From a bacterium (GTDB lineage: Bacteria > Patescibacteriota > Dojkabacteria > GCA-016699595), in contig CP064982.1 in NCBI GenBank assembly GCA_016699595.1, positions 507,962 to 571,961 on the forward strand: a stretch of 64,000 nucleotides of DNA. The letters run 5' to 3'. The position numbers and the translations under genes were made by a program. Positions 29,354 through 51,898 of this stretch are shown piece by piece (positions within the stretch are counted from its first letter, which is position 1; every line of letters starts with the position of its first letter). Under the pieces are notes generated by a model. The model did no database searches and was not told where the DNA came from. It was given only the letters and a program-made list of their open reading frames with translations.

Positions 29354-30058
29354 ATGGATAGAAATTCGGACTTCCACAATATCTACAAGCTACTAAAACT
29401 AAAGTATCCTAATGTAAAATCAAGTCTAAACTTTTCAAATGAAGTTGAATGTTGGGCTGCCGTTTTATTATCAGTTCAAAATACAGATAAACATATAAAT
29501 ACGCTTACGCCAAAATTATTCACAAGATTTAAAACTTTTGAAGATTATGCAAACTCAAGTACAAGTGAAATTTTTGAATATGTGAAAGCTGCTAATTACA
29601 ATAAGACTAAAGCAAAATATCTCTTTAATGGAGCCAAAGTAATCTGCAATGAATTTAAAGGCGAATTGCCAAACAATTTGAATGATTTGATGAAGCTTCC
29701 AGGGGTTGGTAGAAAGGTTGGGAATGTGATATTTAGTGAAATGAGCAATGTTTCAGCTGGAATTGCTATAGATACTCATAACTTGAGAGTTTGGAATAGA
29801 ATCTTGTATATAATTCCAGAACAAAACAAAGAATACAAAAAATTATCAGCAAAACAACTTGAGCAACTTCTCATGCAAAATTTAGATAAATCAACTTGGA
29901 GAGAAATTAGTTTGTTAGTTATAGAACATGGAAGAAATATATGCAAAGCTCAAAAACCAAAGTGTGAAGAATGCTTGCTTAAGACGTATTGTGCTTATTA
30001 TATGAGTGAAGTATCCGGACAAAAAATTCACGATATACCAATTTCAACTAGGACTTAA
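29354..30058 (+). CDS. nth: Endonuclease III-family HhH-GPD DNA glycosylase
   Basis: LPGVGRKVGNVI HhH-GPD motif, C-terminal Cys cluster CKAQKPKCEECLLKTYC. Confidence 0.85.
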   Translation: MDRNSDFHNIYKLLKLKYPNVKSSLNFSNEVECWAAVLLSVQNTDKHINTLTPKLFTRFKTFEDYANSSTSEIFEYVKAANYNKTKAKYLFNGAKVICNEFKGELPNNLNDLMKLPGVGRKVGNVIFSEMSNVSAGIAIDTHNLRVWNRILYIIPEQNKEYKKLSAKQLEQLLMQNLDKSTWREISLLVIEHGRNICKAQKPKCEECLLKTYCAYYMSEVSGQKIHDIPISTRT

Positions 30059-35546: not shown

Positions 35547-36881
35547 TTAATAATTAATGCCATCATAGTTACTAGTTACCAAGTAAGAGTTAATCTGTCT
35601 TACAGTGTCTAGAACTCCAGTCACAATAATCAATAAACTAGTACTTCCTAAACCATACCTTAAAACATCTAAGTTAATATTTTGATTAACAATTGATGGT
35701 AAAACAGTAAGTAAAGCTAAAAATATCGTTCCTACAATTGTAAGCTTAGCAACCAGACTTGTCAAATACTTTGCAGTTGATGCACCTGGTCTAATGCCTG
35801 GTACAAATGCACCTGACCTTTGAAAGTTTTCTGCTATTTCATTCGGCTTAAACATTATAAAAAATGTTACAAAAAAGCCAAAAATCATCACAGCAAAAAA
35901 CAAAAGAATATCATATGTCCAAAAGCTTTCGTTTGAATAAATATTATTTACAAGCCACATAGCGGATCTATAGATAAAATCGCCCTCCTTAATATTGAGA
36001 GGATTGTTTGCAGAGAGTAAAAATTGTGCCACAAGAGAAGGTGCACTAACTAGTGCCTGAGCAAAGATTACTGGCATTACACCAGCCATATTGAGCTTTA
36101 CAGGAAAAGTTGATTGTGGAGAGACGATTGTTCCTACATTATTCCTTACTCTACTAGAATACTGTATTATCACATTGCGGACAGCTTCAGTAATAAATAT
36201 GATTACTCCTGTCAATACTAGTAATCCAATTATCATGAAAATAATTGTATTTATTTGCCCATTATCAAGGAACTTAGTAATATCTTGCCAAATAAGCGAT
36301 GGCAAAATGCTAGCAATTCCTGCAATTATTATTATAGTAGAACCATTTCCGATACCTTTCTCAGTGATAGCTTCTGATATCCACATCAATAATAAAGTAC
36401 CCGCCGTCATTGAAGCTAAAATAGCTATAAGCGTTGATTTGTGTGAAAAATCAAATAGTCCTGCATAGTTTTGATTCAATAAAACTATAATTGCATATGA
36501 TTGAATTATACTAATAGGCACTGTAAGAAATCGAGTAATTTGATTTAACATCATCCTACCTCTTGCACCTTCTTTTGACAAATCATCCAACTTTTTAATC
36601 ACACTTTGCAATAGTTGCACAACAAAGGACGCACTAATGTACGATCCAAGTCCTACTGCAATAATTGAAGGCGAATCAAGTCGGCCACCAGTTACAAGAG
36701 TAAAAGCTAGACTAAATGGATTATTGAAAGAATTACTCAAAACAATAGAATTTGTTCCAGGTAATGGAACTGCAGAAAGAAATCGAAATACAACTATCAT
36801 TCCAAAAGTAAACAAAATCCTGGATTTAACTTCAGGATTTTTTGATATCGATCTTACTTTTTCTGAAAATTTTTCTAACAC
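35547..36881 (-). CDS. secY: Preprotein translocase subunit SecY
   Basis: 444 aa multi-TM protein with SecY signature, conserved operon position. Confidence 0.95.
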   Translation of the reverse strand: MLEKFSEKVRSISKNPEVKSRILFTFGMIVVFRFLSAVPLPGTNSIVLSNSFNNPFSLAFTLVTGGRLDSPSIIAVGLGSYISASFVVQLLQSVIKKLDDLSKEGARGRMMLNQITRFLTVPISIIQSYAIIVLLNQNYAGLFDFSHKSTLIAILASMTAGTLLLMWISEAITEKGIGNGSTIIIIAGIASILPSLIWQDITKFLDNGQINTIIFMIIGLLVLTGVIIFITEAVRNVIIQYSSRVRNNVGTIVSPQSTFPVKLNMAGVMPVIFAQALVSAPSLVAQFLLSANNPLNIKEGDFIYRSAMWLVNNIYSNESFWTYDILLFFAVMIFGFFVTFFIMFKPNEIAENFQRSGAFVPGIRPGASTAKYLTSLVAKLTIVGTIFLALLTVLPSIVNQNINLDVLRYGLGSTSLLIIVTGVLDTVRQINSYLVTSNYDGINY

Positions 36882-36911
36882 AAATTTACTGTTCGCTTAC
36901 TAATTTTAAAT

Positions 36912-37340
36912 TTACAAAAGTGATTTTGAAACAAAAACATCAACAAAATTGAATTTTTTATTCAAAGGAACATCCTTCAAAACTTTAATTTCTAACACTT
37001 TTCCTTGCTTTACTTTGGTAGCATTCATCTCAAGCAACTTAGCAACAGTAATTTCATCATTTTCATTGAAATGATCGTTTATATATGATGATTTTATAAG
37101 CACTCTTTGAATATTTAACTTTCTTTGTGACTTAAAACCTCGCAATTTAGGAAGTCTCCTTGAAATTCTGTTTTGACCACCTTCAAAATCTAGCGAAGGT
37201 AATTTCGCTCCAGATCTGCTCATTTGTCCATTCATACCTCGGCCTGTAGTATGTGCACCTTTTCCACTGCCAGCACCTCTACCTACGATCTTTGCCCTTT
37301 TTTGATAATTTTTTTGTTTTGGTAGAGAATGTAAATTCAT
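36912..37340 (-). CDS. rplO: 50S ribosomal protein L15
   Basis: GRGAGSGKGAHTTGRG glycine-rich motif. Confidence 0.95.
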   Translation of the reverse strand: MNLHSLPKQKNYQKRAKIVGRGAGSGKGAHTTGRGMNGQMSRSGAKLPSLDFEGGQNRISRRLPKLRGFKSQRKLNIQRVLIKSSYINDHFNENDEITVAKLLEMNATKVKQGKVLEIKVLKDVPLNKKFNFVDVFVSKSLL

Positions 37341-37350
37341 TTGAATAGTA

Positions 37351-37947
37351 CTATTTTTTCAACATAGTTAAACCTTTCATAGTTGCATAAGCATTTGAAA
37401 CTGGATTTGAACAACCAAGTTGCTTTGTTAAAATATCACTTACACCAGCCATTTCCAATACTTTTCTAACTGGTCCCCCAGCGATAATACCAGTTCCAGG
37501 AGCTGCTGGTTTCAACATCACTTTTGCAGCACCAAACTTCACAGTTATTTCATGAGGTATTGTCCTACCTTTCAAATTTACTTTAACTAATTTCCGCTTA
37601 GCTCTTTCAAGTGCTTTTTCCTGAGCTATTTTAGTGTCAATTCCCTTACCAGAACCAATTGCTAATCTACCTTTTTTGTCGCCAACGACCATAAATACTG
37701 ACATCCTCATTCTTTTTCCTCCAGAATGCACCTTTGTTACTCTTTTCATTTTCAGCAAAACATGATCAAGTTCCTTTTCTTTCTTTTGAGATGATTGTTG
37801 AGTAGTATTTGGAGCAGAAACCCTACCTTGTATAAGGTTTGAAACCCCTTGTTTTCTCCTTTGTACAATTCGTTGTCTGTTACTATCAACTTCATTCGTT
37901 TTTGAAGCTAGTTGTGCTTGGTTTTCAGTTATCATTTTATCATCCAT
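37351..37947 (-). CDS. rpsE: 30S ribosomal protein S5 (with N-terminal extension)
   Basis: uS5 core MVVGDKKGRLAIGSGKG...GTGIIAGGPVRKVLEMAGV; only 10 nt from rplO, so no room for an L30 gene. Confidence 0.95.
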   Translation of the reverse strand: MDDKMITENQAQLASKTNEVDSNRQRIVQRRKQGVSNLIQGRVSAPNTTQQSSQKKEKELDHVLLKMKRVTKVHSGGKRMRMSVFMVVGDKKGRLAIGSGKGIDTKIAQEKALERAKRKLVKVNLKGRTIPHEITVKFGAAKVMLKPAAPGTGIIAGGPVRKVLEMAGVSDILTKQLGCSNPVSNAYATMKGLTMLKK

Positions 37948-37951
37948 AATA

Positions 37952-38287
37952 CTATATGATTATATTATTTTGCCTAACACTTTCTACTAATGCCTTCACT
38001 CTTCCATGATACTTGTAGCCACTTCTATCAAATGTAACTTTTTCAATTTCATTATCCTTCATCATTTTCGAAACCAAAAGTCCAACCTCATTCGCATCTT
38101 CAATCTTGTTCTTATTTTTTAGTTTAAGACTACTTGCAGAAAACAATACCTTACCTTTGTTATCATGTACATAACCATAGATATGCTTATTAGACCTAAA
38201 GACTGACAAAACATACCCAGTTACTTCTCTTTGAAGCCTAGATCTTATACTTAGTTTTCTTTTTTGATGCTTTATCCTTTTACTCAT
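37952..38287 (-). CDS. rplR: 50S ribosomal protein L18
   Basis: uL18 family sequence, conserved position. Confidence 0.9.
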   Translation of the reverse strand: MSKRIKHQKRKLSIRSRLQREVTGYVLSVFRSNKHIYGYVHDNKGKVLFSASSLKLKNKNKIEDANEVGLLVSKMMKDNEIEKVTFDRSGYKYHGRVKALVESVRQNNIII

Positions 38288-38303
38288 TATTTTATAAAAA
38301 ATT

Positions 38304-38864
38304 CTACTTACTACCCGCGGTCTTTCCTTGCTTTCTTCTAACTACTTCACCTGCATATCTTATACCCTTTCCTTTATAAGGTTCCGGCTTCCTCACTTTA
38401 CGAATTTTTGCGGCATATTCTGTAACCTTTTGTTTGTCGATCCCACTTATAGTAATGTTTACCGGATCTTTCAATTCAAAATTGATATCAGCTGGTGCTT
38501 CTATGATTATGGGATGTGAATAACCAACTTTCAAACTTAATTTATTGCCATTCAATTCTGCCTTGTAGCCAATTCCTTGAATCTCCAATTTCTTTTCATA
38601 ACCTTGAGTGACTCCAATGACAGCATTATTTACTATAGATCTATACAATCCATGATAAGCTCTAAGTTGCTTTTCATCACTATCTCTATCAAAAACTATT
38701 TCTTCATTAACTACTTGAAATGTTATACCCGGCTGCATATCAATTCTCAAATCGCCTCGTGGACCGCTCACCAATACACTAATCCCACCATATATATTAT
38801 TGTTTTCTGTTTTTATTTCCACTCCTGCTGGTACTTTTACAGGAGCCTTTCCAATCTTTGACAT
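38304..38864 (-). CDS. rplF: 50S ribosomal protein L6
   Basis: uL6 family sequence, conserved position. Confidence 0.95.
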   Translation of the reverse strand: MSKIGKAPVKVPAGVEIKTENNNIYGGISVLVSGPRGDLRIDMQPGITFQVVNEEIVFDRDSDEKQLRAYHGLYRSIVNNAVIGVTQGYEKKLEIQGIGYKAELNGNKLSLKVGYSHPIIIEAPADINFELKDPVNITISGIDKQKVTEYAAKIRKVRKPEPYKGKGIRYAGEVVRRKQGKTAGSK

Positions 38865-38872
38865 AGTATTGA

Positions 38873-39268
38873 TTAATAAATTTCACACAAAATTTCTCCA
38901 CCTAATCTCTGCCTGTATGCATCTTCACCAGTCATTACGCCTTTGGTAGTCGAAATAATACTTACACCTCTTCCACCCAAAACTTTTTTGATACTTTTGT
39001 AACCTGTATAAACTCTTACACCTGATTTTGAAATTCTTTTCACTTCTGAAATAGCTGGAGCACCTTCAATACTTGATATCTTTGCTTTGATAGTTTTGGC
39101 ATTTTTGATTTTAGGATTGTCAGAAACTTCTACTGACTCCAGAAAACCTCTCTCCTTTAAAACTATTGCAACATTTTCTACAAGGTTTGAATGATTTACA
39201 GTTATTTCATACTTTCCTGCAGTTCCTATGTTTTTAAGTGAACTTAAAAAGTTCGATAAATTATCCAT
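38873..39268 (-). CDS. rpsH: 30S ribosomal protein S8
   Basis: uS8 family sequence, conserved position. Confidence 0.95.
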   Translation of the reverse strand: MDNLSNFLSSLKNIGTAGKYEITVNHSNLVENVAIVLKERGFLESVEVSDNPKIKNAKTIKAKISSIEGAPAISEVKRISKSGVRVYTGYKSIKKVLGGRGVSIISTTKGVMTGEDAYRQRLGGEILCEIY

Positions 39269-39272
39269 AAAT

Positions 39273-39470
39273 TTACCAAGTCGCTTTTGTTACGCCGGGA
39301 ATTTCACCATTAAAAGAAAGCTTTCTCAGGCATATTCTACAAACTCCAAATTGTCGAAAGTAAGCACCAGATCTACCACAAATATTACATCTATTATAAT
39401 TTCTTGTAGAATACTTGCCCTTACCTGCCTTATTCATTTTTGCTTTGTATTCTTTAGCAACAGTACTCAT
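39273..39470 (-). CDS. rpsN: 30S ribosomal protein S14, zinc-binding type Z
   Basis: 65 aa; [20 protein letters not shown] zinc-ribbon motif. Confidence 0.95.
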
Positions 39471-39472
39471 GT

Positions 39473-40030
39473 TTATATATTAGTTTTAACAAATGGCATT
39501 CCTAACATTTCTAGTAATTTTAGTGATTTCTCTGGATCAGAATTTTTTATAACTATTGTCACTTCAAAACCTCTAAGTTTGTCTAGTTTAGTGCCATCAA
39601 CTTCAGGAAATACAGTTTGTTCTTTGAATCCTAAAGTAAAATTTCCTGCTTTATCAAACTTCTTAGGTAGACCTCTAAAATCCTTTACTCTAGGTAGAGC
39701 AACATTCATAGTCCTATCTAGAAAGTCCCACATTTTATCCTTTCTCAAAGTAACCATACATCCTATTTTCGCACCCTTTCTTAAAGAAAAATTTGAAATA
39801 TCAACTCTAGCCTTAGTCAATACTGGAGCCTGCCCAGTCATTTCTTTGATAGCATCAATTGTATTTTCCAAAGCATTAGCATTTTTCAAAGCCTCACCTA
39901 ATCCGAAATTTACTACCACCTTTTCAATCCTTGGTAGTCCCAAAAGATTTTTTATTTCCAATTCACTTGCCAATTTCTTTGCTATTTCTTTTTTATATTT
40001 ATCTTGCAAATTAGTCATTCTTTTTTTCAC
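39473..40030 (-). CDS. rplE: 50S ribosomal protein L5
   Basis: uL5 family sequence; start may be an internal Met (20-nt overlap with rplX). Confidence 0.95.
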
Positions 40031-40325
40031 TTGAAGATGCTAATGTTTTTCGCTTTACATTTTCTTTTTTAATCTTCACTGACTTGCTCTTTTCATCTTC
40101 AATATAATCTGTCAAAACAACATTTGAATGATGGATTTTCCCTTCAACTTTAAACAATCCACCTGCAAAGCCTAGTGTTTTGTTTGGCTTAGCATGCCTT
40201 GTTTTCATATTGATTCCCTCAACCCATAAATATTGTTTGTCCTTGCTCATTTTCAATATCTTTCCGGACTTACCTTTATCATCACCACAAATTATTTTTA
40301 CTTTTTGATCTTTTTTTAAATTCAT
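40011..40325 (-). CDS. rplX: 50S ribosomal protein L24
   Basis: KOW-domain sequence KVKIICGDDKGKSGKIL. Confidence 0.9.
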   Translation of the reverse strand: MNLKKDQKVKIICGDDKGKSGKILKMSKDKQYLWVEGINMKTRHAKPNKTLGFAGGLFKVEGKIHHSNVVLTDYIEDEKSKSVKIKKENVKRKTLASSSEKKND

Positions 40326-40340
40326 ATGTTTATTAATCTA

Positions 40341-40724
40341 TTACAATACTTCTGGAGCGAGAGAGATAATTTTGTTGAAACCCTTCGCTTTCAACTCTCT
40401 TGCAATTGGTCCAAATACTCTAGTCCCTTTTGGATCTCTATTTTTCATATCAATTATTACAGCAGCATTATCGTCAAATCGAATATAAGTTCCATCCTTT
40501 CTTCTTTGTTCTTTCTTTGTTCTGACAATAACTATATGGCATTTATCACCATCCTTAAATTGACCATTAGGCTTAACCTTCGTTACAGCTGCCGAACAAA
40601 TATCTCCAATCCTTGCATACCTATGCCATTTACCACCCTTTAACCCACCTCTTACCTGTATAATCATAGCTTCCTTAGCTCCTGAATTATCTGCAATTGT
40701 TACATGAGATTTAGATTGTAACAT
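40341..40724 (-). CDS. rplN: 50S ribosomal protein L14
   Basis: [25 protein letters not shown]-terminus. Confidence 0.95.
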
Positions 40725-40729
40725 ACTTT

Positions 40730-40981
40730 TTAATTTACTAATTTATGTGCGACCCTTTTAGACAAAGGTCTAATCGAAACCATATTTACAACATCACCAA
40801 CTTTAGGATTCAAGTCTGATTTTGATACTAAATACTTTTTTGATTTTCTTAATATTTTTTTGTATTTTGAATGTGCAAAGCTTCGCGTTACTTTCACAGA
40901 AACTGTGCCTTCCATCTTGTCTGAAACTACTATCCCAACAATTTTCTTTTTTGCTTTTATATTCTTATCCATAAATAACAT
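40730..40981 (-). CDS. rpsQ: 30S ribosomal protein S17
   Basis: [18 protein letters not shown]...IRPLSKRV; start abuts the rplP stop, leaving no L29 gene. Confidence 0.9.
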
Positions 40982-41400
40982 TAAACTTCAGATTCTGATT
41001 TGATCAAAAATCTTACATGAATAGGTAACTTTTTTGCTGCCTTTTCCAAAGCAGTTTTTGCAATCTCCTTACTAACACCACTAAGCTCAAATATAACTCT
41101 ACCTGGCTTCACTATTGCAACATAATGATCAATATCACCTTTGCCTGAGCCCATTCTTGTTTCAGCTGGCTTTTTTGTAATTGGCTTATCTGGGAATATT
41201 CTTAACCATAATTTCCCCTTTCTTTGAGTTTCCCTAACTATAACTCTTCTAGCAGCTTCAATCTGGTTTGGAGTAATCCTACATCTTTCTAACGCTTGAA
41301 TGCCATAATTCCCAACTGTCAAGGAATTACCAGAAAAAGCAAGCCCTCCCATTCTTCCTTTCATTTGCTTCCTGTATTTTGTTCTTGCTGGTTGTAACAT
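40981..41400 (-). CDS. rplP: 50S ribosomal protein L16
   Basis: [20 protein letters not shown]-terminus. Confidence 0.95.
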
Positions 41401-41413
41401 AAATCTTAGTCAA

Positions 41414-42055
41414 TTATTTCTCCAATTTATCTTCTTTGTATATCCAAACTTTTATACCATGCAATCCTGCATTAGGAACCCTGACATTATACAAATGATA
41501 GTCTACATTGGCTTTCAGAGTTTGCAAAGGAACAGATCCAAAAGATACCTTTTCCGTTCTAGCAATTTCAGTACCTCTTATGCGACCTGAAACTGATATT
41601 TTTGCACCCCTTACACTAGGTATTGCCTTCATTTTTAGAAGCTCTCTTTGCATAGCTTGTTTTGGAGAAACCCTCCTTTTGCATTGATCTGCAACCATAT
41701 AAGCAACAATAGCTGCTTGAGATTCGGGATTCTTTGATTCAATAATTTTCACATCTACTTTTACTTTCAACAGTTTCGCCAAATCTTTCTTTAAATCTTC
41801 TATCGCTTTGCCACCTCTACCTATAACTACACCTGGTCTAGCCACAGTTACATCTATTTGTATATCATTTATATTCCTATAAATAAATATTGATTCAATT
41901 CCGGAAGAATCAAGTTTCTTTTCAATAAATCTTCTTACTTTGTTGTCCTCAGCCAAATTCTTCGCAAAATCAAGTTTTGTCTTTGAAAACCAACTACTTG
42001 AATGTGTTTTATTTACTCCCAATCGCAAAACAATTGGATTAGTTTTGTGTCCCAT
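41414..42055 (-). CDS. rpsC: 30S ribosomal protein S3
   Basis: MGHKTNPIVLRLG N-terminus, KH domain. Confidence 0.95.
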   Translation of the reverse strand: MGHKTNPIVLRLGVNKTHSSSWFSKTKLDFAKNLAEDNKVRRFIEKKLDSSGIESIFIYRNINDIQIDVTVARPGVVIGRGGKAIEDLKKDLAKLLKVKVDVKIIESKNPESQAAIVAYMVADQCKRRVSPKQAMQRELLKMKAIPSVRGAKISVSGRIRGTEIARTEKVSFGSVPLQTLKANVDYHLYNVRVPNAGLHGIKVWIYKEDKLEK

Positions 42056-42398
42056 TAATTTCTTCTAAAACTACAGTTATATGAGAAGATCTTTTCAATA
42101 TCTCACGAACACCGTGTCTTGATGCAATTCTAGCTCTTTTCAATGTTGGTGCTTCATCAACCATTATCTTGCTTACAACCAAACTATTCACTGATAAACC
42201 AGCTACTTTGGCATTCGCCACTGCACTACTTATTGTTTTATAAACAGATTTTGAACCTGATCTATTTACAAATTTTAAAGCATCCAATACATCCAAAGCA
42301 TTTTGCATTCGAACCATATCTGCAACCAACCTAGTTTTTTGAACTGAAATACCTGTATACTTGTTTTTTGCTATTGCAAATTTTTTCGTCATTGCCAA
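42039..42398 (-). CDS. rplV: 50S ribosomal protein L22
   Basis: uL22 family sequence, conserved position. Confidence 0.9.
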   Translation of the reverse strand: MAMTKKFAIAKNKYTGISVQKTRLVADMVRMQNALDVLDALKFVNRSGSKSVYKTISSAVANAKVAGLSVNSLVVSKIMVDEAPTLKRARIASRHGVREILKRSSHITVVLEEINGTQN

Positions 42399-42407
42399 TA
42401 AATATGT

Positions 42408-42713
42408 CTATTTAGCTAAAGAACCTGAACTCCCGGTAGCTTTAGCGATTTTACCTTTCTTGCTATGACCATTAAACTTTCTAGTCAAAGAAAATTCACC
42501 CAATCTGTGTCCAATCATAGATTCAGTAATAAAAACAGGAATGAAATCTTTCCCGTTATGTACCTCCATAGTAAATCCAACCATTTCTGGAGAGATCTGA
42601 GAAGCTCTCGCCCATGTCTTAAAATATTTCTTCCCATTAGTTTCTAGTATCTTATCAACCTTTTTTTGAACTCTTGGATCTATATAAGGTCCCTTTTTCA
42701 ATGATCTTGACAT
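42408..42713 (-). CDS. rpsS: 30S ribosomal protein S19
   Basis: [14 protein letters not shown]-terminus. Confidence 0.95.
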
Positions 42714-42725
42714 AATATTGTACTT

Positions 42726-43568
42726 TTAAACTAAAGCCTTTTTACTATTTCGCCCTCTTAAAATAAATTTTTGTGTTCTCTTGTTGTTTCTAGTCTTAGC
42801 AAATCTCTTATTCCCCCATGGATCAACAGCTGGACCACCCGTTCCGTGCCTACCAGCCTTTCCTTGACCTCCTCCATGTGGATGTGATCTTGGATGCTGA
42901 GCTACACCTCTAACAATCGGTCTGAAACCTTTGTGTCGGAGCGTACCAGCCTTACCAAACTTCTGATTCATGTTATCAAGGTTTGAAAGCTGACCTATTG
43001 TAGCATAATTTTTCGATAAAACAAGTCTAACTTCACCTGATGGTAACTTAATTTGTGTATAATTTTCTTTTTGCCCCATTACAACTGCACTAGTTCCAGC
43101 TGACCTAACTAATCCACCATCTCTATTTTCATCTATAATTATATTATGCACAGCAGTACCAGATGGAATATTTGCAAGCCTCATAGCATTACCAACAAGC
43201 ACTGGTGTTGTTTCAGCAGATAATACTTGATCTCCAACCTTTACGCCATTTGGATTTAATATATAGGACTTTTTACCATTTGGATAAAAAACTAAACTAA
43301 TATAACAAGATCTATATGGATCATATTCAACAGTTTTTACCGTACCTGGCAAATCTCTGTCTAGTCTCCTGAAATCAATAAGTCTATACATTCTATCTGC
43401 CCTCGTTCCTCGACCACGCACAGTTATTTTACCTCTCCCACTCCTAGCAAGCCTTGGATTTAATTTCTTTAATAAAGATTTTTCTGGAGTATCTGTCGTC
43501 AAATCTACATGCTTTACCCTTACTTGATGCCTTCTTGTTTGTGTTGTGGCTTTATGATGCGTTAACAT
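42726..43568 (-). CDS. rplB: 50S ribosomal protein L2
   Basis: Conserved C-terminal GGGQGKAGRHGTGGPAVDPWG region. Confidence 0.95.
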   Translation of the reverse strand: MLTHHKATTQTRRHQVRVKHVDLTTDTPEKSLLKKLNPRLARSGRGKITVRGRGTRADRMYRLIDFRRLDRDLPGTVKTVEYDPYRSCYISLVFYPNGKKSYILNPNGVKVGDQVLSAETTPVLVGNAMRLANIPSGTAVHNIIIDENRDGGLVRSAGTSAVVMGQKENYTQIKLPSGEVRLVLSKNYATIGQLSNLDNMNQKFGKAGTLRHKGFRPIVRGVAQHPRSHPHGGGQGKAGRHGTGGPAVDPWGNKRFAKTRNNKRTQKFILRGRNSKKALV

Positions 43569-43915
43569 TATATTGCAAAACCTTCAATACTATCACCCTT
43601 CGCTAGTTTCACTAAATATCGTTTTTTAGAATCTGTAATTCGGAAATTTCTAGTATTTCCAATTCGCTTTTTTTTACCTCTAATTGATACTGACCTTATA
43701 TCTACGACTTTCACCTTGTATAAATTAGCTATCTCTTTTCCAACAATTATTTTATTCGATCTTGACTTCGACGATTCTTTTTTGGTCACAACAAAACTAT
43801 AAATTCCGTCTTTTGCGAGCAATATTGATTTTTCATTTATTATAGGTTTCAAAAATTCTGAACCTTTATCAATATCTACTGCACCTGTTTTTTTTACTTG
43901 GTTTGCTTTTGCCAT
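43568..43915 (-). CDS. rplW: 50S ribosomal protein L23
   Basis: uL23 family sequence, conserved position. Confidence 0.9.
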   Translation of the reverse strand: MAKANQVKKTGAVDIDKGSEFLKPIINEKSILLAKDGIYSFVVTKKESSKSRSNKIIVGKEIANLYKVKVVDIRSVSIRGKKKRIGNTRNFRITDSKKRYLVKLAKGDSIEGFAI

Positions 43916-44529
43916 TAACTTTCGTATCTAGCCTCTAAGCTTTTGATTGACTCTTCAGTAAATATTACTTTACCATAATTTATAATGTCATAAACTGACA
44001 ATTCTGATAAATTTGCTACTTTATATCCCTTGAGATTTACGAAAGCTTTGTAAATCATAGGTTCATCACCACTTTGAACAATCAGTAATTTTTTGAAGTT
44101 CAATAACTTGATAAATTCATTAGCTTCCTTCGTTTTCGTAAAATCAAACTTATCCTTCGATACATACAACCCATCCGAACTAGCAACCATATTCAAAGCC
44201 GACAACATAGCAAGCAATCTTAACTTTTTCGACAATTTTCTTTTGTAATTCCTATCATTTTTAGGTCCAAACACTGTTCCACCACCTCGTAGCAATGGCG
44301 ATTTGACAGATCCTCTTCTAGCATTTCCAGTTCCTTTTTGCCTGTATAGTTTTCTAGTAGAGCCTGTAACATCTCCCCTATCTTTCGTATGTGCATTTGA
44401 CTCTCTTTGGTTCCCTAGATAAATCTTGACCGATAGTGCAACCAAGTCAACATTTGGTTCAATATCAAGAAATTTATAATCTTTTTGTTCAACTACTTTT
44501 CCTGTTTTGTTTAATACATTAACTTTCAT
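43915..44529 (-). CDS. rplD: 50S ribosomal protein L4
   Basis: uL4 family sequence, conserved position. Confidence 0.9.
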   Translation of the reverse strand: MKVNVLNKTGKVVEQKDYKFLDIEPNVDLVALSVKIYLGNQRESNAHTKDRGDVTGSTRKLYRQKGTGNARRGSVKSPLLRGGGTVFGPKNDRNYKRKLSKKLRLLAMLSALNMVASSDGLYVSKDKFDFTKTKEANEFIKLLNFKKLLIVQSGDEPMIYKAFVNLKGYKVANLSELSVYDIINYGKVIFTEESIKSLEARYES

Positions 44530-44531
44530 AA

Positions 44532-44912
44532 CTAAATTGCATTAATTGCATAATACAAATCATTAATACTAAGATTAAAAGCCTCAATAAAACTTTCACT
44601 TCCATCTTCTGTAGAACCTTCACTGATTTTAACTAAATCCTCATTTACAGTATCAATTTTATTTTTGATCTCAACAAAAAACACTTCACATTCTTCGTCA
44701 ACTTTCAAACTCAAAAACAATTTGTCTTCATAGTTTTGCGACAAAATTCTTTGATTTATGCCTAGCTTTACATCATTTACAGACCGACTCAAAATGTACC
44801 TACAATTTTCCTTATTCAGTACATTTTCAAACCTTTCAGTTTTTTCATAAAAAAAGAAAGATAAGACAAAACACAAAATAAGAAAAGCAAATGAAAAAAT
44901 AGCCTTCAACAT
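44532..44912 (-). CDS. Hypothetical small membrane-anchored protein embedded between rplC and rplD
   Basis: 126-aa ORF spaced 2-3 nt from both ribosomal genes; N-terminal hydrophobic segment AIFSFAFLILCFVLSFFFY; no recognisable family. Confidence 0.5.
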   Translation of the reverse strand: MLKAIFSFAFLILCFVLSFFFYEKTERFENVLNKENCRYILSRSVNDVKLGINQRILSQNYEDKLFLSLKVDEECEVFFVEIKNKIDTVNEDLVKISEGSTEDGSESFIEAFNLSINDLYYAINAI

Positions 44913-44915
44913 AAT

Positions 44916-45527
44916 TTATTGCTTTCTTGCCTTTTTCAAAAAAATATAAGAACCTTTCATTCCAGGAACAGCACCCTTTACAAGGATAATTTTATTTTCC
45001 CTATCATACTTAACTATTTGCAAATTTTTTACAGTCACTTGATGGTTACCAAATTTCTTAGGCATTCTTCGGCCCTTGTGTACATGTCCAAAAGTTTGAC
45101 CCTGAGCAATAGATCCTATCGACCTATGTTTTGTACTTTGTCCATGAGTTTTCGGTCCACCTTTAAAATGATATGCCCTAACTACACCTTGAAACCCTTT
45201 GCCTTTACTAGTACCTGTGACATCTACAATATCGCCTTCTGCAAGTTCTGAAGCATAATCATCACCAACATTCAAACCTTCAACAATTGTTCCAAATTCT
45301 TTAATATACTTATAGGATTTACCAATCCCAAATTGGTTTTTTTCTGGCTTATTTGAATTTTTCTTTACATCTTTACCAACAACAGTTGACTCGTAACCAT
45401 CAGTTTCTTTCGACTTAGCACCCAAAAAAATATTATCCGCCACATCTATTACAGTACAAGGCACAACATTCCCACCGTCTTCAAATATCTGAATCATATT
45501 CTTTTTTGTTCCTAAAATAAAATTCAT
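44916..45527 (-). CDS. rplC: 50S ribosomal protein L3
   Basis: uL3 family sequence, conserved position after rpsJ. Confidence 0.95.
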   Translation of the reverse strand: MNFILGTKKNMIQIFEDGGNVVPCTVIDVADNIFLGAKSKETDGYESTVVGKDVKKNSNKPEKNQFGIGKSYKYIKEFGTIVEGLNVGDDYASELAEGDIVDVTGTSKGKGFQGVVRAYHFKGGPKTHGQSTKHRSIGSIAQGQTFGHVHKGRRMPKKFGNHQVTVKNLQIVKYDRENKIILVKGAVPGMKGSYIFLKKARKQ

Positions 45528-45530
45528 TAT

Positions 45531-45830
45531 TTACTTAATTTCTATACCTACACCAGAAGGTGCTTGCATTTTTGTCAACGCATCTATAGTTTTAGCATTA
45601 TAGTCATTCAAAACCAGAAGTCTTTTATGCCTTATCAGCTGTACATGTTCCTTTGACCTAGCATCAATGTGAGGTCCCCTAAGTAAACAAAAAACGCTCC
45701 TTTTGTTTGGCAAAGGAATTGGACCTGAAAGCCTAGCTCCTGTTCTGAGTACATCTTCAACCAATTGAGAAATTACTTTATCAACTAGTTTTGAATCGTA
45801 TCCTGTTATAGTTATCTTTATGGGTGTCAT
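45531..45830 (-). CDS. rpsJ: 30S ribosomal protein S10
   Basis: 99 aa; uS10 family sequence. Confidence 0.95.
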   Translation of the reverse strand: MTPIKITITGYDSKLVDKVISQLVEDVLRTGARLSGPIPLPNKRSVFCLLRGPHIDARSKEHVQLIRHKRLLVLNDYNAKTIDALTKMQAPSGVGIEIK

Positions 45831-45835
45831 ACTTT

Positions 45836-45863
45836 AAAAATTGCTGCACTAGGGCAGCAATTT
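45836..45863 (-). terminator. Putative intrinsic terminator downstream of tuf
   Basis: Hairpin AAATTGCTGC-actagg-GCAGCAATTT; on the minus-strand transcript it is followed by a U-rich run. Confidence 0.45.
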
Positions 45864-45877
45864 ATTTAAGTTAATAT

Positions 45878-47077
45878 TTATTTAAGAACTTTGGTAACAA
45901 CTCCAGCACCAACTGTTCTACCACCTTCTCGAATTGCAAATTTCATTTTTTCTTCGACGACTACTGGAACTATCAACTTGATAGTCAAAGTTACATCATC
46001 ACCTGGCATAACCATCTCTGTACCTTGTGGCAAAAAAACTTCGCCTGTTATATCAGCAGTTCCTATATACAGTTGAGGCTTGTACCCTGCAAAGAATGAT
46101 GTGTGTCTACCACCTTCTTCTTTAGTCAATATATAAACTTGAGCTTCAAATTCCGTATGAACTTTCAAGGAACCTGGTTTACACAAAGTTTGACCTCTTT
46201 GAATCCTATCTTTATCAACACCTCTAAGCAAAAGTCCAACATTATCACCTGCTTGAGCCTCTTCCATTTGTTTATTAAACATTTCAACTCCAGTAACAAC
46301 TGATTTTTGGGAAGCTTCTCCCATACCCAAAATTTCCACTTCTTCTCCAACCTTTATTTTACCTTTATCTATTCTACCAGTTGCTACTGTACCCCTACCT
46401 GAGATAGAAAATACATCCTCAACTGACATTTTGAAAGGTAAGTCAATTTCTCGAACTGGTTCGTCTATCCATTCATCTAGCTTAATCAAGAGTTCCTCAA
46501 TTCCCTTTCTTGATTCTGCATCTTGGGGATTAGTCATAGCATTATAAGAATTTCCATAGACAACTGGAGTACCTTTCCCATCAAATTCATACTTCTCCAA
46601 AAGATCTCTGACCTCTTCTTCAATAAGAGCCAACATGTCTGGATCATCAGAACCTGGATATACATTGACATAAACAACAATCTTAGGAACACCAACCTGC
46701 TTAGCAAGTAAAAGATGCTCTCTTGTCTGAGGCATTGGGCCATCAGCAGAACTCACAACCAATATCGCTCCATCCATCTGAGCTGCACCAGTTATCATAT
46801 TCTTTATATAGTCAGCATGACCAGGACAATCAACATGAGCATAATGCCTATTTGCAGACTCGTATTCAACATGAGAAGTTGCAACAGTAACTATTTTTTT
46901 ACCATCGCCTCGAGTGATACCACCTTTAGCAATAGTAGCATAATCCTTTGCTTGAGCAGAGTAACCCAATGCTGCAGATACTTGCAAAAGAGCAGCAGTA
47001 GTTGTAGTTTTGCCATGGTCAACATGACCAATAGTACCAATGTTTAAATGAGGTTTGTTTCGAACAAATTGTGCCAT
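45878..47077 (-). CDS. tuf: Translation elongation factor Tu
   Basis: [15 protein letters not shown]1 motif, DCPGH, NKCD-type motifs; start placed at [10 protein letters not shown] Met (track ORF begins 47092). Confidence 0.97.
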
Positions 47078-47344
47078 AAAAATAAAGTTCATTCCGCTAT
47101 TAACGGAATCAAAGAGCCTATCTTAAATTAATAACTTAGGCAGAATAAATATTTTCAAACAATTCTCAAATTCAGATCATCACCAGAAGAATTATTCAAT
47201 ATCAAAAGCTTATTCAATTGCAAAATCGATTATCACACAATGTTTTAAAATTTGCAAGCAAATTTTTACTAATTTTAAAACTAAATATGCTTTCCAACTT
47301 AAAAAACATTTCCAGTCTTTACAATACAATTGCAATAAATTCTT

Positions 47345-49474
47345 TTACTCTTCTTCGCTCGCATCCTTTTTCAACCTATCTCCCAAAAGCTCAGCAACCA
47401 ATCCGTTTGGTACTATTGAATAGCTATCAAATTCCATAGTACTTGCACCCCTTCCTGATGTCATAGATCGAAGTTCCATCGTCCAACCAAACATATTTGA
47501 TAATGGAACCTTTGCTTTGACACTTTGTATATCACCATCCAAAGCGTCCATACCTTCAATCATTCCCCTTTTTGATGAGAGTGCTCCTGTTACATCACCT
47601 GCATATTGAGTAGGAACAGTAACCACAACTGTCATCATAGGCTCCAAAAGTACAGGTTTCGCTGCTTTTAGAGCTGCCCTCATAGCCATTGAACCTGCTC
47701 TTTCGAATGCTTCTGAACTTGAGTCAACATCATGATATGAACCGTCATACAGTTCAACCTTGACATCACTTGTAGGAAATCCACCAATAACACCATTACC
47801 CAGAGCTTTCTCGCAGCCATCTTGAATTGGTTTGATATACTCCCTAGGTATTGAACCTCCCTTTATAGCATCAACAAACTCAAACCCTTTCCCAACATTA
47901 GGTTCAATTCGAATCCTACAATGCCCATACTGTCCACGACCTCCAGATTGTTTGATATATTTTCCTTCCTGATCTGCAGTTCCAGTAATCGTTTCCTTGT
48001 AAGCAACTTGAGGTTTTCCTACATTTACATTTATACCGTAATCTCTTTGCATTATATCAACTTTGATCTCCAAATGAAGCTCACCCATTCCTGAAATAAT
48101 CGTTTGACCCGTTTCTTGATTTACAGTTACTTTGAATGTAGGATCTTCTTTCGTCAACTTGTTCAATGCCTCACCCATTTTTTCTTGATCAGACTTTGTC
48201 TTTGGCTCAATTGCTAGACTTACAACTGGATTTGCAAAACGAATTGTCTCAAGTATTATCGGACTACTTGGATCTGACAAAGTTTCTCCTGTGCCGGTAT
48301 CTTTCAAACCAATAATAGCTGCTATATCACCAGCTCTCACTTCTTGTACATCCTCTCTAGAATTTGCATGCAACATAACAATCCTACCAATCCTTTCATC
48401 AGCCCTTTTAATTGGATTTAAGACTGTTGTACCTGCCTTCAAAGAACCTGAATACACCCTAAAAAACGACAATGTTCCAACATGAGGGTCAACGGCTATT
48501 TTGAAGACTAATGCAGCAAAGGGATCTTTTGTATCTGGCTTTCTTTCCAAACTTACAGATTCATCTACTGGATCATGACCTTGAACTGCCCCTCTGTCAT
48601 TTGGAGATGGTAAATATCTACAAATCACATCAAGCAGTGGCTGAATCCCTTTGTTTTTTAATGATGCTCCAACTAGTACAGGAAAAATTTTGTTCTCAAT
48701 TGTAGCCTTTCTCATGACAGGATAAATTTCTTCAGGAGTGATTTCCTCGCCAGCAAAAAACTTTTCAATCAATCCATCATCAAATTCAGCAATCTTTTCA
48801 ATCATTTTTGTCCTCCATTCATTTGCAGTTTCAATCATATCTGCAGGAATTTCAGTAATCGTCATTTCCTTGACATCATCTTTGCCATATTCATAAACTT
48901 TCATAGTCACCAAGTCAATTATTCTGTACAAATCTGACTCTGCACCAATAGGAATTTGGATAGCTATAGCATCTTTTGACAGTCTAGCTTTTATAGAATC
49001 TAGTGACTTATAAAAACTTGAACCAATAGAGTCAAGTTTGTTTACATAGCAAACTCTAGGTACTTTGTATTCGTTTGCTTGTCGCCAAACAGTTTCCGAC
49101 TGAGGCTCAACCCCCATCTTGCCATCAAAACAAACTACAGCTCCATCCAAAACTCTCAACGACCTTTGAACTTCAGCAGTAAAGTCTACATGACCGGGTG
49201 TATCTATAATATTTATCCTATGAGCTTTTCCATCGGTATTCCAAAAGCAAGTAGTTGCAGCTGACTGAATAGTGATACCTCTTTCTCTTTCCTGTTGCAT
49301 GAAATCCATCTCAGCAGCACCCTCATGTACTTCGCCTAATTTATGTTTCCTCCCTGTGAAGTATAGTATTCTTTCTGTAGTTGTAGTTTTACCAGCATCA
49401 ATATGAGCTATGATACCGATATTTCTATATAAGTTTAAGTCTTTGACTTGTGTATAATCTATTGCGTTCGCCAT
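47345..49474 (-). CDS. fusA: Translation elongation factor G
   Basis: [28 protein letters not shown] and the five-domain EF-G architecture. Confidence 0.97.
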
Positions 49475-49636: not shown

Positions 49637-51844
49637 TCAATGAAAAAGAGAGTGTATTAAAGAAAGTAGTACATTCATCTTACCAGTACTAGCTAGAGAT
49701 GCATTGATACTAATACTAACATCCGTACTCCCCAAAACTCCTGCTATACTCTCTTTCGATACGGTTAGCATGTAGCTACTACCTGTTAGGTTTGCATTTG
49801 ATACACAACTTACACTACTTCCTGTTGCTGGTGTAGGTGTACATGTAAAGTTTGGTATAGTAACCTTATCTCCTACTTCCGTTACCACAACTACTGTAGG
49901 CTTGGTACTGTTCGTACTTGATAAGATTTCTACACGGGTACTTGTTTGTATAACTAAATTCAATACAGTCGATCTTGCTGATTCTTGTCCTGATCCATTT
50001 GTATCAGTATAACTGAGTACATAACTAGCATTTGTTACTGGGAATATCAAATTCAATGTGACTGGTCCAGTAGTTGTACATGTATAAGTTGTGAGTAGGT
50101 CATTACCACTATACACTTTTAGAGTATTTCCTACTTCACTACATATCAAGCTTACATCTGGTGTATTGTCTGATGTGACATTGTCAGTAGAAGATATACC
50201 TGTATCGCTACTAGTTAGCAGGTCAATCATTACAGGTTGAGTTGGTGGGGTACTTTCACTTACATACACATTGAAATTTTTGTCAAATACTCCCCCTAGG
50301 TTATCTGTTACTCTGATACATAGACTGTAGATACTTTTCGTTTCATAGTCTGGTTGTACATTTAGTCTTAGGTTGTTTGTTGATATATTGAAACTTCCAT
50401 CATCTAATCCTGGTACTGCACATGATAGGGAGTATGTATATGGTGAGTCTCCTTCTGCATCTGTTGCTGTCAGTACTCCAACTAGGTATGGTGATACTAT
50501 ACTCTCTGTTACTACATTATTACTTAGGCTTATGTCAGTAGGATCTTCGTTAGTATAGGTTACAAATACATCTACTATTGAATTTGTATCCCCAGGAACG
50601 AGGTTGTTAGCATCGGAAGTGAATGTTACAAATCTTCCGTCTGCAGAAATTGAAGAGAATCCAGAAAAATTATTTCCTTCTACTCCACTACTACTTACCG
50701 ATACTCTTTCTACAGTATCAGTATCTCGATCATATACAAAAATATCCTCAGTAACATTGGCATCACCAGGGACTAAATTGTTAGCATCAGAAGTGAATGT
50801 TACAAATCTTCCATCTGTAGAGATTGAAGGTACATATGAGTAGTCATTACCTTCTACCCCAGTACCACTTACTGATACTCTTTCTATATTGTCAGTATCT
50901 CGATCATATACAAATACATCTGCCATTGAATTCGTATCTCCAGGAACTAAATTGTTAGCAGCAGAAGTGAATGTTACAAATCTTCCATTTGTAGAAATTG
51001 AAGGTTCATATGAACCATCATTACCCTGTACTCCACTACTACTTACCGATACTCTTTCTACAGTATCAGTATCTCGATCATATACAAAAATATCCTCAGT
51101 AACATTGGCATCACCAGGGACTAAATTGTTAGCATCAGAAGTGAATGTTACAAATCTTCCATCTGCAGAAATTGAAGGTTCATATGAATCAATATTACCC
51201 TGTACCCCACTACTACTTACCGATACTCTTTCTACAGTGTCAGTATTTTGATCATACACAAAGATATCATCTCTAGCATTTGTATCTCCAGAAACTAAAT
51301 TGTCAGCTCGTGAAGTAAATGTTACAAATCTTCCATCTGCAGAAATTGAAGGTTGATATGAAACATGATTACCCTCTACCCCAGTACCACTTACTGATAC
51401 TCTTTCTATACTATCAGTATCTCGATCATACACAAAAATATCAGCTCTAGCATTTGTATCACCAGGGACGAGGTTATTAGCAGCAGAATAGAATGTTACA
51501 AATCTCCCATCTGCAGAAATTGAAGATTCATATGAGTAGTCATTACCTTCTACCCCAGTACCACTTACTGATACTCTTTCTATACTATCAGTATCTCGAT
51601 CATACACAAAAATATCAGCTCTAGCATTTGTATCACCAGGGACGAGGTTATTAGCATCGGAAGTGAATGTTACAAATCTTCCATCCGTAGAGGTTGAAGA
51701 TAAATATGAACCATCATTACCCTGTACTCCAGTACTATCAACTGATATTCTCTCTACATATCTTGTAGTAGCTGCATACGTAGGAAGGGTAAATATACCA
51801 AGTAGCAATAGTGTGTATGTTGTTAATTTGAGCAGTGTTTTCAT
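49637..51844 (-). CDS. Secreted surface protein with ~7 tandem 59-aa PD40/TolB-like repeats and C-terminal SLASTGK motif
   Basis: Signal peptide MKTLLKLTTYTLLLLGIFTLPTYAA; repeats of ERVSVSxxGVxGNxxSYxPSISxDGRFVTFTSxANNLVPGDTNxxxDIFVYDRDTD; C-terminus ASLASTGKMNVLLSLIHSLFH. Confidence 0.7.
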   Translation of the reverse strand: MKTLLKLTTYTLLLLGIFTLPTYAATTRYVERISVDSTGVQGNDGSYLSSTSTDGRFVTFTSDANNLVPGDTNARADIFVYDRDTDSIERVSVSGTGVEGNDYSYESSISADGRFVTFYSAANNLVPGDTNARADIFVYDRDTDSIERVSVSGTGVEGNHVSYQPSISADGRFVTFTSRADNLVSGDTNARDDIFVYDQNTDTVERVSVSSSGVQGNIDSYEPSISADGRFVTFTSDANNLVPGDANVTEDIFVYDRDTDTVERVSVSSSGVQGNDGSYEPSISTNGRFVTFTSAANNLVPGDTNSMADVFVYDRDTDNIERVSVSGTGVEGNDYSYVPSISTDGRFVTFTSDANNLVPGDANVTEDIFVYDRDTDTVERVSVSSSGVEGNNFSGFSSISADGRFVTFTSDANNLVPGDTNSIVDVFVTYTNEDPTDISLSNNVVTESIVSPYLVGVLTATDAEGDSPYTYSLSCAVPGLDDGSFNISTNNLRLNVQPDYETKSIYSLCIRVTDNLGGVFDKNFNVYVSESTPPTQPVMIDLLTSSDTGISSTDNVTSDNTPDVSLICSEVGNTLKVYSGNDLLTTYTCTTTGPVTLNLIFPVTNASYVLSYTDTNGSGQESARSTVLNLVIQTSTRVEILSSTNSTKPTVVVVTEVGDKVTIPNFTCTPTPATGSSVSCVSNANLTGSSYMLTVSKESIAGVLGSTDVSISINASLASTGKMNVLLSLIHSLFH
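50524..51769. repeat. Tandem ~177-nt repeat array (about 7 units) inside the PD40-repeat surface protein gene
   Basis: Some adjacent units are near-identical at nucleotide level over more than 100 nt (e.g. around 51377-51480 versus 51554-51657). Confidence 0.7.
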
Positions 51845-51898
51845 GTGAAAATTATTTAAGTTGATGCTAAACAATGCAATTTTATGTTAAATGCAATT

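Follow-up and report, generated by a model that had tools for sequence, protein, structure and literature searches.

Few gene orders in bacteria are as conserved as that within the S10 operon (S10-L3-L4-L23-L2-...). Operons of ribosomal proteins (r-proteins) also carry passenger genes with non-ribosomal products, such as secY, adk and map, which are ancient, widespread and of known function, and all three are present in the superoperon analysed here. The gene that we describe resembles these passengers in being non-ribosomal and apparently co-expressed with its r-protein neighbours, and like SecY its product is a predicted membrane protein; unlike them, it interrupts the S10 operon between rplC and rplD, occurs only in a single clade of the candidate phyla radiation (CPR) and belongs to an orphan family. 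In architecture the nearest known class is FtsB/DivIC/FtsL, a group of small bitopic proteins in which a short tail in the cytoplasm is followed by one transmembrane (TM) helix and an extracytoplasmic coiled coil. In a survey of r-protein gene clusters in Gammaproteobacteria and Bacilli, the insertions that were analysed in detail lie between operons or in rpoBC, not in S10 (PMC8046335). In the literature and libraries that we searched, we found no description of the orphan family, of its conservation across the clade or of its position in the S10 operon. On present evidence, we regard the gene as an orphan family and as an unusual case of the known passenger-gene phenomenon, not as a new kind of system.

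The gene was found in a stretch of 64,000 nucleotides of contig CP064982.1 (hereafter the window, meaning this whole stretch). The organism belongs to CPR/Patescibacteria and is close to Dojkabacteria, as supported by a GC content of about 33%, a source contig of 762 kb and the lack of a uL30 gene between rpsE and rplO. The minus-strand gene order in the window is tuf - rpsJ - rplC - ORF - rplD - rplW - rplB - rpsS - rplV - rpsC, and the coordinates of the inserted ORF, its parts and its immediate neighbours are listed in Table 1. A preliminary description had reported an extra ORF wedged between rplC and rplD, and we were able to confirm it, with spacers of 3 nt and 2 nt on its two sides. The ORF has an ATG start, a TAG stop and 126 codons; the product is named hypothetical protein IPJ91_02740, which is its sole NCBI entry. 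According to the ORF listing, no plus-strand ORF of at least 40 aa overlaps it. Rfam found no structured RNA in the region, and no paralogues of the ORF were found in the 64-kb window or in the 20-kb locus of a relative (L102).

Table 1. Coordinates (positions in the window) of the inserted ORF, its predicted parts, the flanking genes and the spacers
Feature	Position	Strand	Evidence or remark
Extra ORF (126-aa predicted bitopic membrane protein, orphan family)	44532..44912	-	ORF listing, coding signature, positional orthologues
Predicted TM helix (signal-anchor), codons 4-22, after Met-Leu-Lys	44847..44903	-	best 19-residue hydropathy window
Cys37 codon (TGT)	44802..44804	-	sole invariant residue besides Met1 in alignments A2 and A3
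Cys75 codon (TGT), second conserved extramembrane Cys	44688..44690	-	position 75-92 in relatives
rplC (uL3), upstream neighbour	44916..45527	-	Pfam PF00297 Ribosomal_L3, homologues
rplD (uL4), downstream neighbour	43915..44529	-	Pfam PF00573 Ribosomal_L4, E=9.8e-54
3-nt spacer, rplC stop to ORF start	44913..44915	-	TAA ATT ATG; -4 to +5 nt in relatives
2-nt spacer, ORF stop to rplD start	44530..44531	-	TAG TT ATG; -11 to +9 nt in relatives

The inserted ORF has the properties of a coding sequence. Given the base composition of the ORF, 9.6% of the codons should be stops, so that the probability of 126 open codons is only about 3e-6, and the frame was kept open in none of 20,000 shuffles of the ORF (0/20,000). 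Using a codon-usage model trained on 41 genes of the window, we obtained a log-likelihood of 0.30 per codon for the ORF in frame, as compared to 0.33 +/- 0.07 for the genes of the window, and the scores of its five other frames are all negative (-0.27 to -1.70). The ORF differs from the 94%-identical copy in a close relative (L084) by 6 synonymous and 7 nonsynonymous changes, which gives a dN/dS of 0.26 (based on only 13 substitutions) and an excess of synonymous changes with a binomial p=0.02; in the same comparison, the dN/dS of the neighbouring r-protein genes is 0.08-0.15. With such small numbers, we take this comparison as no more than supportive. The order S10-L3-ORF-L4 also appears in the Logan assembly of SRR11674035, which was made separately, and two further runs yielded it in 98%-related strains. 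Two outcomes named in the preliminary description as fatal to the gene, the lack of a coding signature or of conservation in relatives, and a misassembly, were both contradicted: relatives down to 50% L3 identity carry an ORF of 120-148 aa at this place, and the arrangement is not a misassembly because it recurs in independent assemblies. We are highly confident that the ORF in the slot is a genuine, conserved protein-coding gene.

To find relatives, we searched with L3 and then read the contigs at the rplC-rplD slot. Relatives that bear the slot ORF were drawn from NCBI, JGI and Logan data and fall into five lineages, including that of the window. The ORF encodes 126 aa in L084/L085 (L3 98% identical to that of the window) and also in L086/L087 (L3 identity 61%), 148 aa in L090/L091/L102 (50%), 140 aa in L093 (52%) and 120 aa in L098 (50%), a partial copy of which is found in L099. 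By contrast to these loci, rplC and rplD abut or overlap, with no ORF between them, in the sister lineages (L088/L089, L100/L101 and L092). The ORF is likewise absent in L094/L095, in L096/L097 (a MAG named Candidatus Dojkabacteria) and in about 80 GTDB species representatives (WWE3, Gottesmanbacteria, and about 75 from Chloroflexota and other groups).

The neighbor-joining (NJ) tree of concatenated S10+L3+L4+L23+L2 (100 bootstraps) recovers the insert-bearing loci as a monophyletic group in 100/100 bootstraps. L088/L100 form the sister group of this clade, and L094 and the Dojkabacteria MAG L096 fall outside. L092, which is without the insert and has an L3 55% identical to that of the window, joins the insert-less sister clade (100/100 bootstraps). 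Since the insert-bearing loci form one clade and L092 goes with its insert-less sister, one event on the tree accounts for the presence and absence of the gene. We propose that the S10 operon acquired the gene once, in the ancestor of a Dojkabacteria-related clade of CPR/Patescibacteria, and that it has been kept since.

We note that the only other large gap between L3 and L4 (600 nt, in L020; SRP286056_co1_17, a MAG labelled 'uncultured Gammaproteobacteria') was considered as an insert and rejected, as it is taken up by extensions of the two flanking proteins. In this locus (L020, 423-2276), L3 (334 aa) is extended at its C-terminus by about 130 aa of acidic, low-complexity sequence, and L4 at its N-terminus by about 70 aa of basic sequence.

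All slot proteins have a K or R at residue 2-3, one hydrophobic helix at about residues 3-26 and then a polar stretch (often S-L-N-N), and they range from 120 to 148 aa. The N-terminal hydrophobic segment that was noticed at the outset in the window ORF is indeed present: residues 4-22 have a mean Kyte-Doolittle hydropathy of 2.49. Every slot protein contains exactly two Cys outside the TM helix, at positions 37-41 and 75-92. Cys makes up 0.66% of the residues in the proteins of the window, and the chance that the first Cys recurs in a 5-residue window across four further lineages is about 1e-6; the windows were set post hoc, yet this value leaves a wide margin. The net charge flanking the TM helix on its N side is +1 in four of the five lineages and 0 in L093, and on its C side it is -1 to +1, so that the charge asymmetry around the helix is weak. 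The C-terminal domain of the window ORF has a net charge of -9.

Sequence similarity among the slot proteins is significant only within two pairs, window/L084 and L090/L093 (E=2e-11 for the latter). BLASTP of the window ORF against the L086 slot protein gave E=0.03, and leave-one-out profile tests against shuffled controls were not significant for most of the slot proteins (p=0.03-0.5). Because the profile tests did not establish homology between most members, we define the family by synteny and architecture. Common descent of the slot proteins is suggested by their synteny, size, architecture, Cys pattern and restriction to a single clade, and not by sequence scores.

The preliminary description found no recognisable family for the ORF, and extensive searches agree with this. 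In a word-indexed search of 5.8 billion proteins and in a full phmmer scan of 1.84 billion representatives, the window ORF was matched only by itself; a search with the family profile returned slot-family proteins only, and metagenome contigs scanned with peptide patterns from the window ORF gave no match. Sub-threshold or scattered matches were all that was found in Pfam, NCBIfam, PHROGs, PADLOC and PDB sequences. In PHROGs and PADLOC, the window ORF has no match and other slot proteins have scattered single matches (E>=0.002), which gives no sign of a phage i-spanin or of any other phage or defence family. The only Pfam/NCBIfam family matched by the window ORF is ArlX/FlaX, the archaellum scaffold (PF24151 / NF058591; E=0.003-0.005), with scores below the cut-offs (17.7 vs 28.7 bits for Pfam gathering, and 16.5 vs 225 for NCBIfam). 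Two of seven slot proteins match it, namely the window ORF and its 94%-identical copy. Like the slot protein, ArlX/FlaX has a coiled coil after an N-terminal TM helix, but it is archaeal and is found in the context of the archaellum operon; this match is most likely compositional, reflecting coiled-coil bias.

Other families of small or membrane-anchored proteins were compared as well. The accessory subunits of Sec/YidC (SecE, SecG, YajC, YidD) have no match to the slot proteins in Pfam or NCBIfam, and one slot protein has a chance-level match to SPC12 (E=0.17). The slot proteins lack the two flanking TM helices and the cytoplasmic signalling module of four-helix-bundle sensors (4HB_MCP-like); the LytS-N, NarQ and Tar ligand-binding domains were considered as further extracytoplasmic four-helix-bundle comparators. 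No match to uL29 (Ribosomal_L29, PF00831) was found for the 7 slot proteins at E<=10, and hhalign of alignment A3 against three L29 sequences gave a probability of 0.06. uL29 is small (about 65 aa), soluble and lacks a membrane segment, and we rejected the idea that the slot ORF is a relocated or TM-fused uL29, given this hhalign result and a TM helix that is incompatible with uL29. Also rejected were a lipoprotein (by eye, as Leu-Ile-Leu-Cys14 makes a poor lipobox and Cys14 is found in the window lineage only) and a type IV pilin (by inspection, as the G-F/M-x-x-x-E prepilin motif is lacking).

We predicted structures with AlphaFold2 (AF2) from very shallow alignments (4 rows). The model of the window protein (pLDDT 75, pTM 0.55) has helices at residues 2-58, 73-98 and 104-125, and the model of a second slot protein (P0124; pLDDT 68) has helices at 2-64, 70-90, 96-106 and 112-139. 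Both models are all-helical, with a long helix that leads out of the membrane and two to three helices packed back on it. Foldseek against PDB returned nothing below E=0.8. In the window model, Cys37 is in the membrane-proximal helix 1 and Cys75 at the start of helix 2; the two are not clearly adjacent, and the pLDDT between them is 51-65. Going by this model, a disulfide between them may be intermolecular or absent.

We saw no consistent signal-peptidase or lipobox motif in the N-termini of the slot proteins. As far as can be read from the primary sequence, the basic N-tail, the signal-anchor core of about 20 residues and the flanking charges favour an N-in, C-out topology. The pair of Cys in a Cys-poor proteome would fit an oxidising extracytoplasmic site and a disulfide that stabilises or dimerises the protein. 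In our picture of the slot protein, a positive N-tail of 2-7 residues in the cytoplasm leads into one signal-anchor TM helix. The domain that follows, of about 100 residues, would form a helical bundle, most probably on the outside of the cell, in which the two conserved Cys are most likely disulfide-linked, either within one chain or between chains.

Promoter and terminator motifs for the slot ORF are not above chance frequency, and the spacers at its junctions are short (-11 to +9 nt) in all slot-family loci. Most genes from fusA to secY abut or overlap, and a Shine-Dalgarno motif within 22 nt upstream is near-absent among these 23 genes (36881-49474), including the slot ORF; initiation in this organism appears to be largely independent of Shine-Dalgarno motifs or coupled. 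The short spacers and chance-level motifs suggest co-transcription and translational coupling. The slot ORF would be co-transcribed in the S10 operon mRNA and most likely translated by termination-reinitiation coupling, because it has no promoter, terminator or Shine-Dalgarno motif of its own and abuts both rplC and rplD. Output of the protein would then be tied to ribosome synthesis, i.e. high, constitutive and proportional to growth rate, and the protein most probably belongs to the envelope or cell surface, not to the ribosome, and borrows the operon for its expression. Topology, disulfide, translational coupling and envelope role are each put forward as probable features; as for the whole package, a real gene for a fast-evolving, abundant, bitopic N-in/C-out envelope protein that is expressed via the S10 operon, we favour it with moderate confidence.

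The same data can be read in other ways. The protein could be a membrane factor associated with the ribosome or the translocon. In this case either its helical domain would face the cytoplasm (N-out, C-in) or the protein would be a neighbour of SecYEG/YidC, and it would anchor or organise translating ribosomes at the membrane, perhaps making up for the absence of uL29 from the tunnel exit; its place in S10 would reflect its function and its stoichiometry with ribosomes. In favour of such a factor, extra genes fixed in translation operons usually act in translation or secretion (e.g. secY, 35547-36881), and the slot ORF has remained closely spaced with its neighbours even between deeply diverged lineages. 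The state of uL29 also speaks for it: rpmC (uL29) is absent from its slot in the window, where the stop of rplP (40981-41400, minus strand) overlaps the start of rpsQ (40730-40981, minus strand), L16 and S17 are likewise adjacent in a second insert-bearing lineage (L102, 14234-14885), and a small L29 HMM found no L29-like ORF in the 64-kb window. Lineage-specific loss of uL29 has been reported in CPR (PMC9297842). Still, the signal-anchor-like N-terminus and the acidic-to-neutral C-terminal domain argue for an external domain, and a conserved pair of Cys is more typical of extracytoplasmic proteins. The slot proteins have no similarity to L29 and no Sec, YidC or ribosomal Pfam match, and their very rapid divergence sets them apart from proteins that bind to conserved surfaces of the ribosome. 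We consider a ribosome- or translocon-associated factor unlikely, and its more specific version, a clade-specific membrane-anchored partner of the ribosome or Sec that is encoded in S10 for stoichiometry and was acquired in a uL29-less lineage, rather improbable. In their architecture the slot proteins also resemble the FtsB/DivIC/FtsL divisome class, of which they could be analogues in function or homologues too diverged to recognise: proteins of this class (about 100-130 aa) likewise have a very short basic N-tail, one TM helix near the N-terminus and a long helix that extends it out of the membrane, at a size close to the 120-148 aa of the slot family. However, no slot protein matches the Pfam or NCBIfam HMMs of FtsB/DivIC/FtsL (PF04977 and relatives), for Pfam even at E<=10; a Cys pair is not a feature of the class, the genomic context is an r-protein operon instead of dcw or eno, and with the gene restricted to one clade, the sister clade and other CPR would need a different protein for the same job. 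A divisome role thus seems to us a long shot.

The gene might also be a young or neutral passenger ORF without important function, arisen de novo from an AT-rich spacer or left over from an old insertion, the hydrophobic N-terminus being a by-product of T-rich sequence. Homologues are not found outside the clade, the sequence evolves very fast, the GC content of the ORF (27-28%) is below that of the flanking genes, and T-rich DNA readily encodes segments rich in Phe, Leu and Ile, all of which speak for such an origin. A neutral frame, however, would close fast in AT-rich DNA at the stop frequency given above, whereas this frame has stayed open at near-constant length in five lineages down to 50% L3 identity, with conserved positions of the TM helix and the two Cys, a dN/dS below 1 and gene-like codon usage; we regard a functionless passenger as very improbable. 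That the gene is an artefact of assembly, or was brought into this MAG alone by a recent mobile element, can practically be dismissed: the separate Logan assembly, the two other runs and four more divergent lineages all contain the arrangement and refute this, and no transposase or mobile family was matched by the slot proteins, apart from a lone chance-level match of one of them to TNP-like_GBD (E=0.082).

The insert between rplC and rplD provides a clean synapomorphy for its CPR clade, and it shows that orphan genes whose sequences change too quickly to be traced by homology searches can still be recognised as conserved from synteny and architecture. The slot protein should be made at the levels of r-proteins, in organisms whose surface biology (e.g. 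host attachment) is little known. If it is a surface protein, as we favour, few envelope proteins of these cells are likely to exceed it in abundance, and it would be useful as a target for detecting or enriching the cells. If it is instead associated with the ribosome or the translocon, it would be a new component of translation or secretion, and as a partner of either in a lineage without uL29 it would represent a new coupling of ribosome and membrane in ultra-small bacteria.

Other features of the translation cluster were observed in the window and in related loci. Between tuf and rpsJ there is a hairpin (45838-45863, in the region 45831-45877, minus strand) of 10 bp followed by UUUUU, 9 nt before the rpsJ ATG. 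It has a folding energy of -14.5 kcal/mol (z=-3.5), an equally stable structure was seen in 0/200 shuffles, and it has no Rfam match; it could be a terminator, an attenuator or an S10-leader-like regulatory element. S5 (rpsE) is long (198 aa) and appears to be N-terminally extended as compared to the roughly 166 aa of typical bacterial S5. The gene rpmD (uL30) is absent between rpsE (37351-37947) and rplO (36912-37340), which are separated by a gap of 10 nt, and absence of uL30 is a hallmark of CPR (PMC9297842).

In place of rpsL-rpsG, fusA is preceded in the window by a gene for a 745-aa surface-type protein with PD40/Kelch/Big_13/cadherin-like domains (49637-51874, minus strand), and in L102 an ORF of 795 aa without Pfam match is found at the corresponding place before fusA. 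Just past the far end of the superoperon there is a 1361-aa SdrD_B/SpaA adhesin-like gene (25182-29267, minus strand), which is separated from rpsI by an endonuclease III-like gene in the opposite orientation (29354-30058, plus strand). Of the large surface-protein genes, one therefore abuts the translation cluster and one lies just beyond it. In the insert-less sister clade, an ORF of 287 aa without Pfam match is located between fusA and tuf (L088, 211-1074), which is another lineage-specific gene inside the conserved translation cluster.
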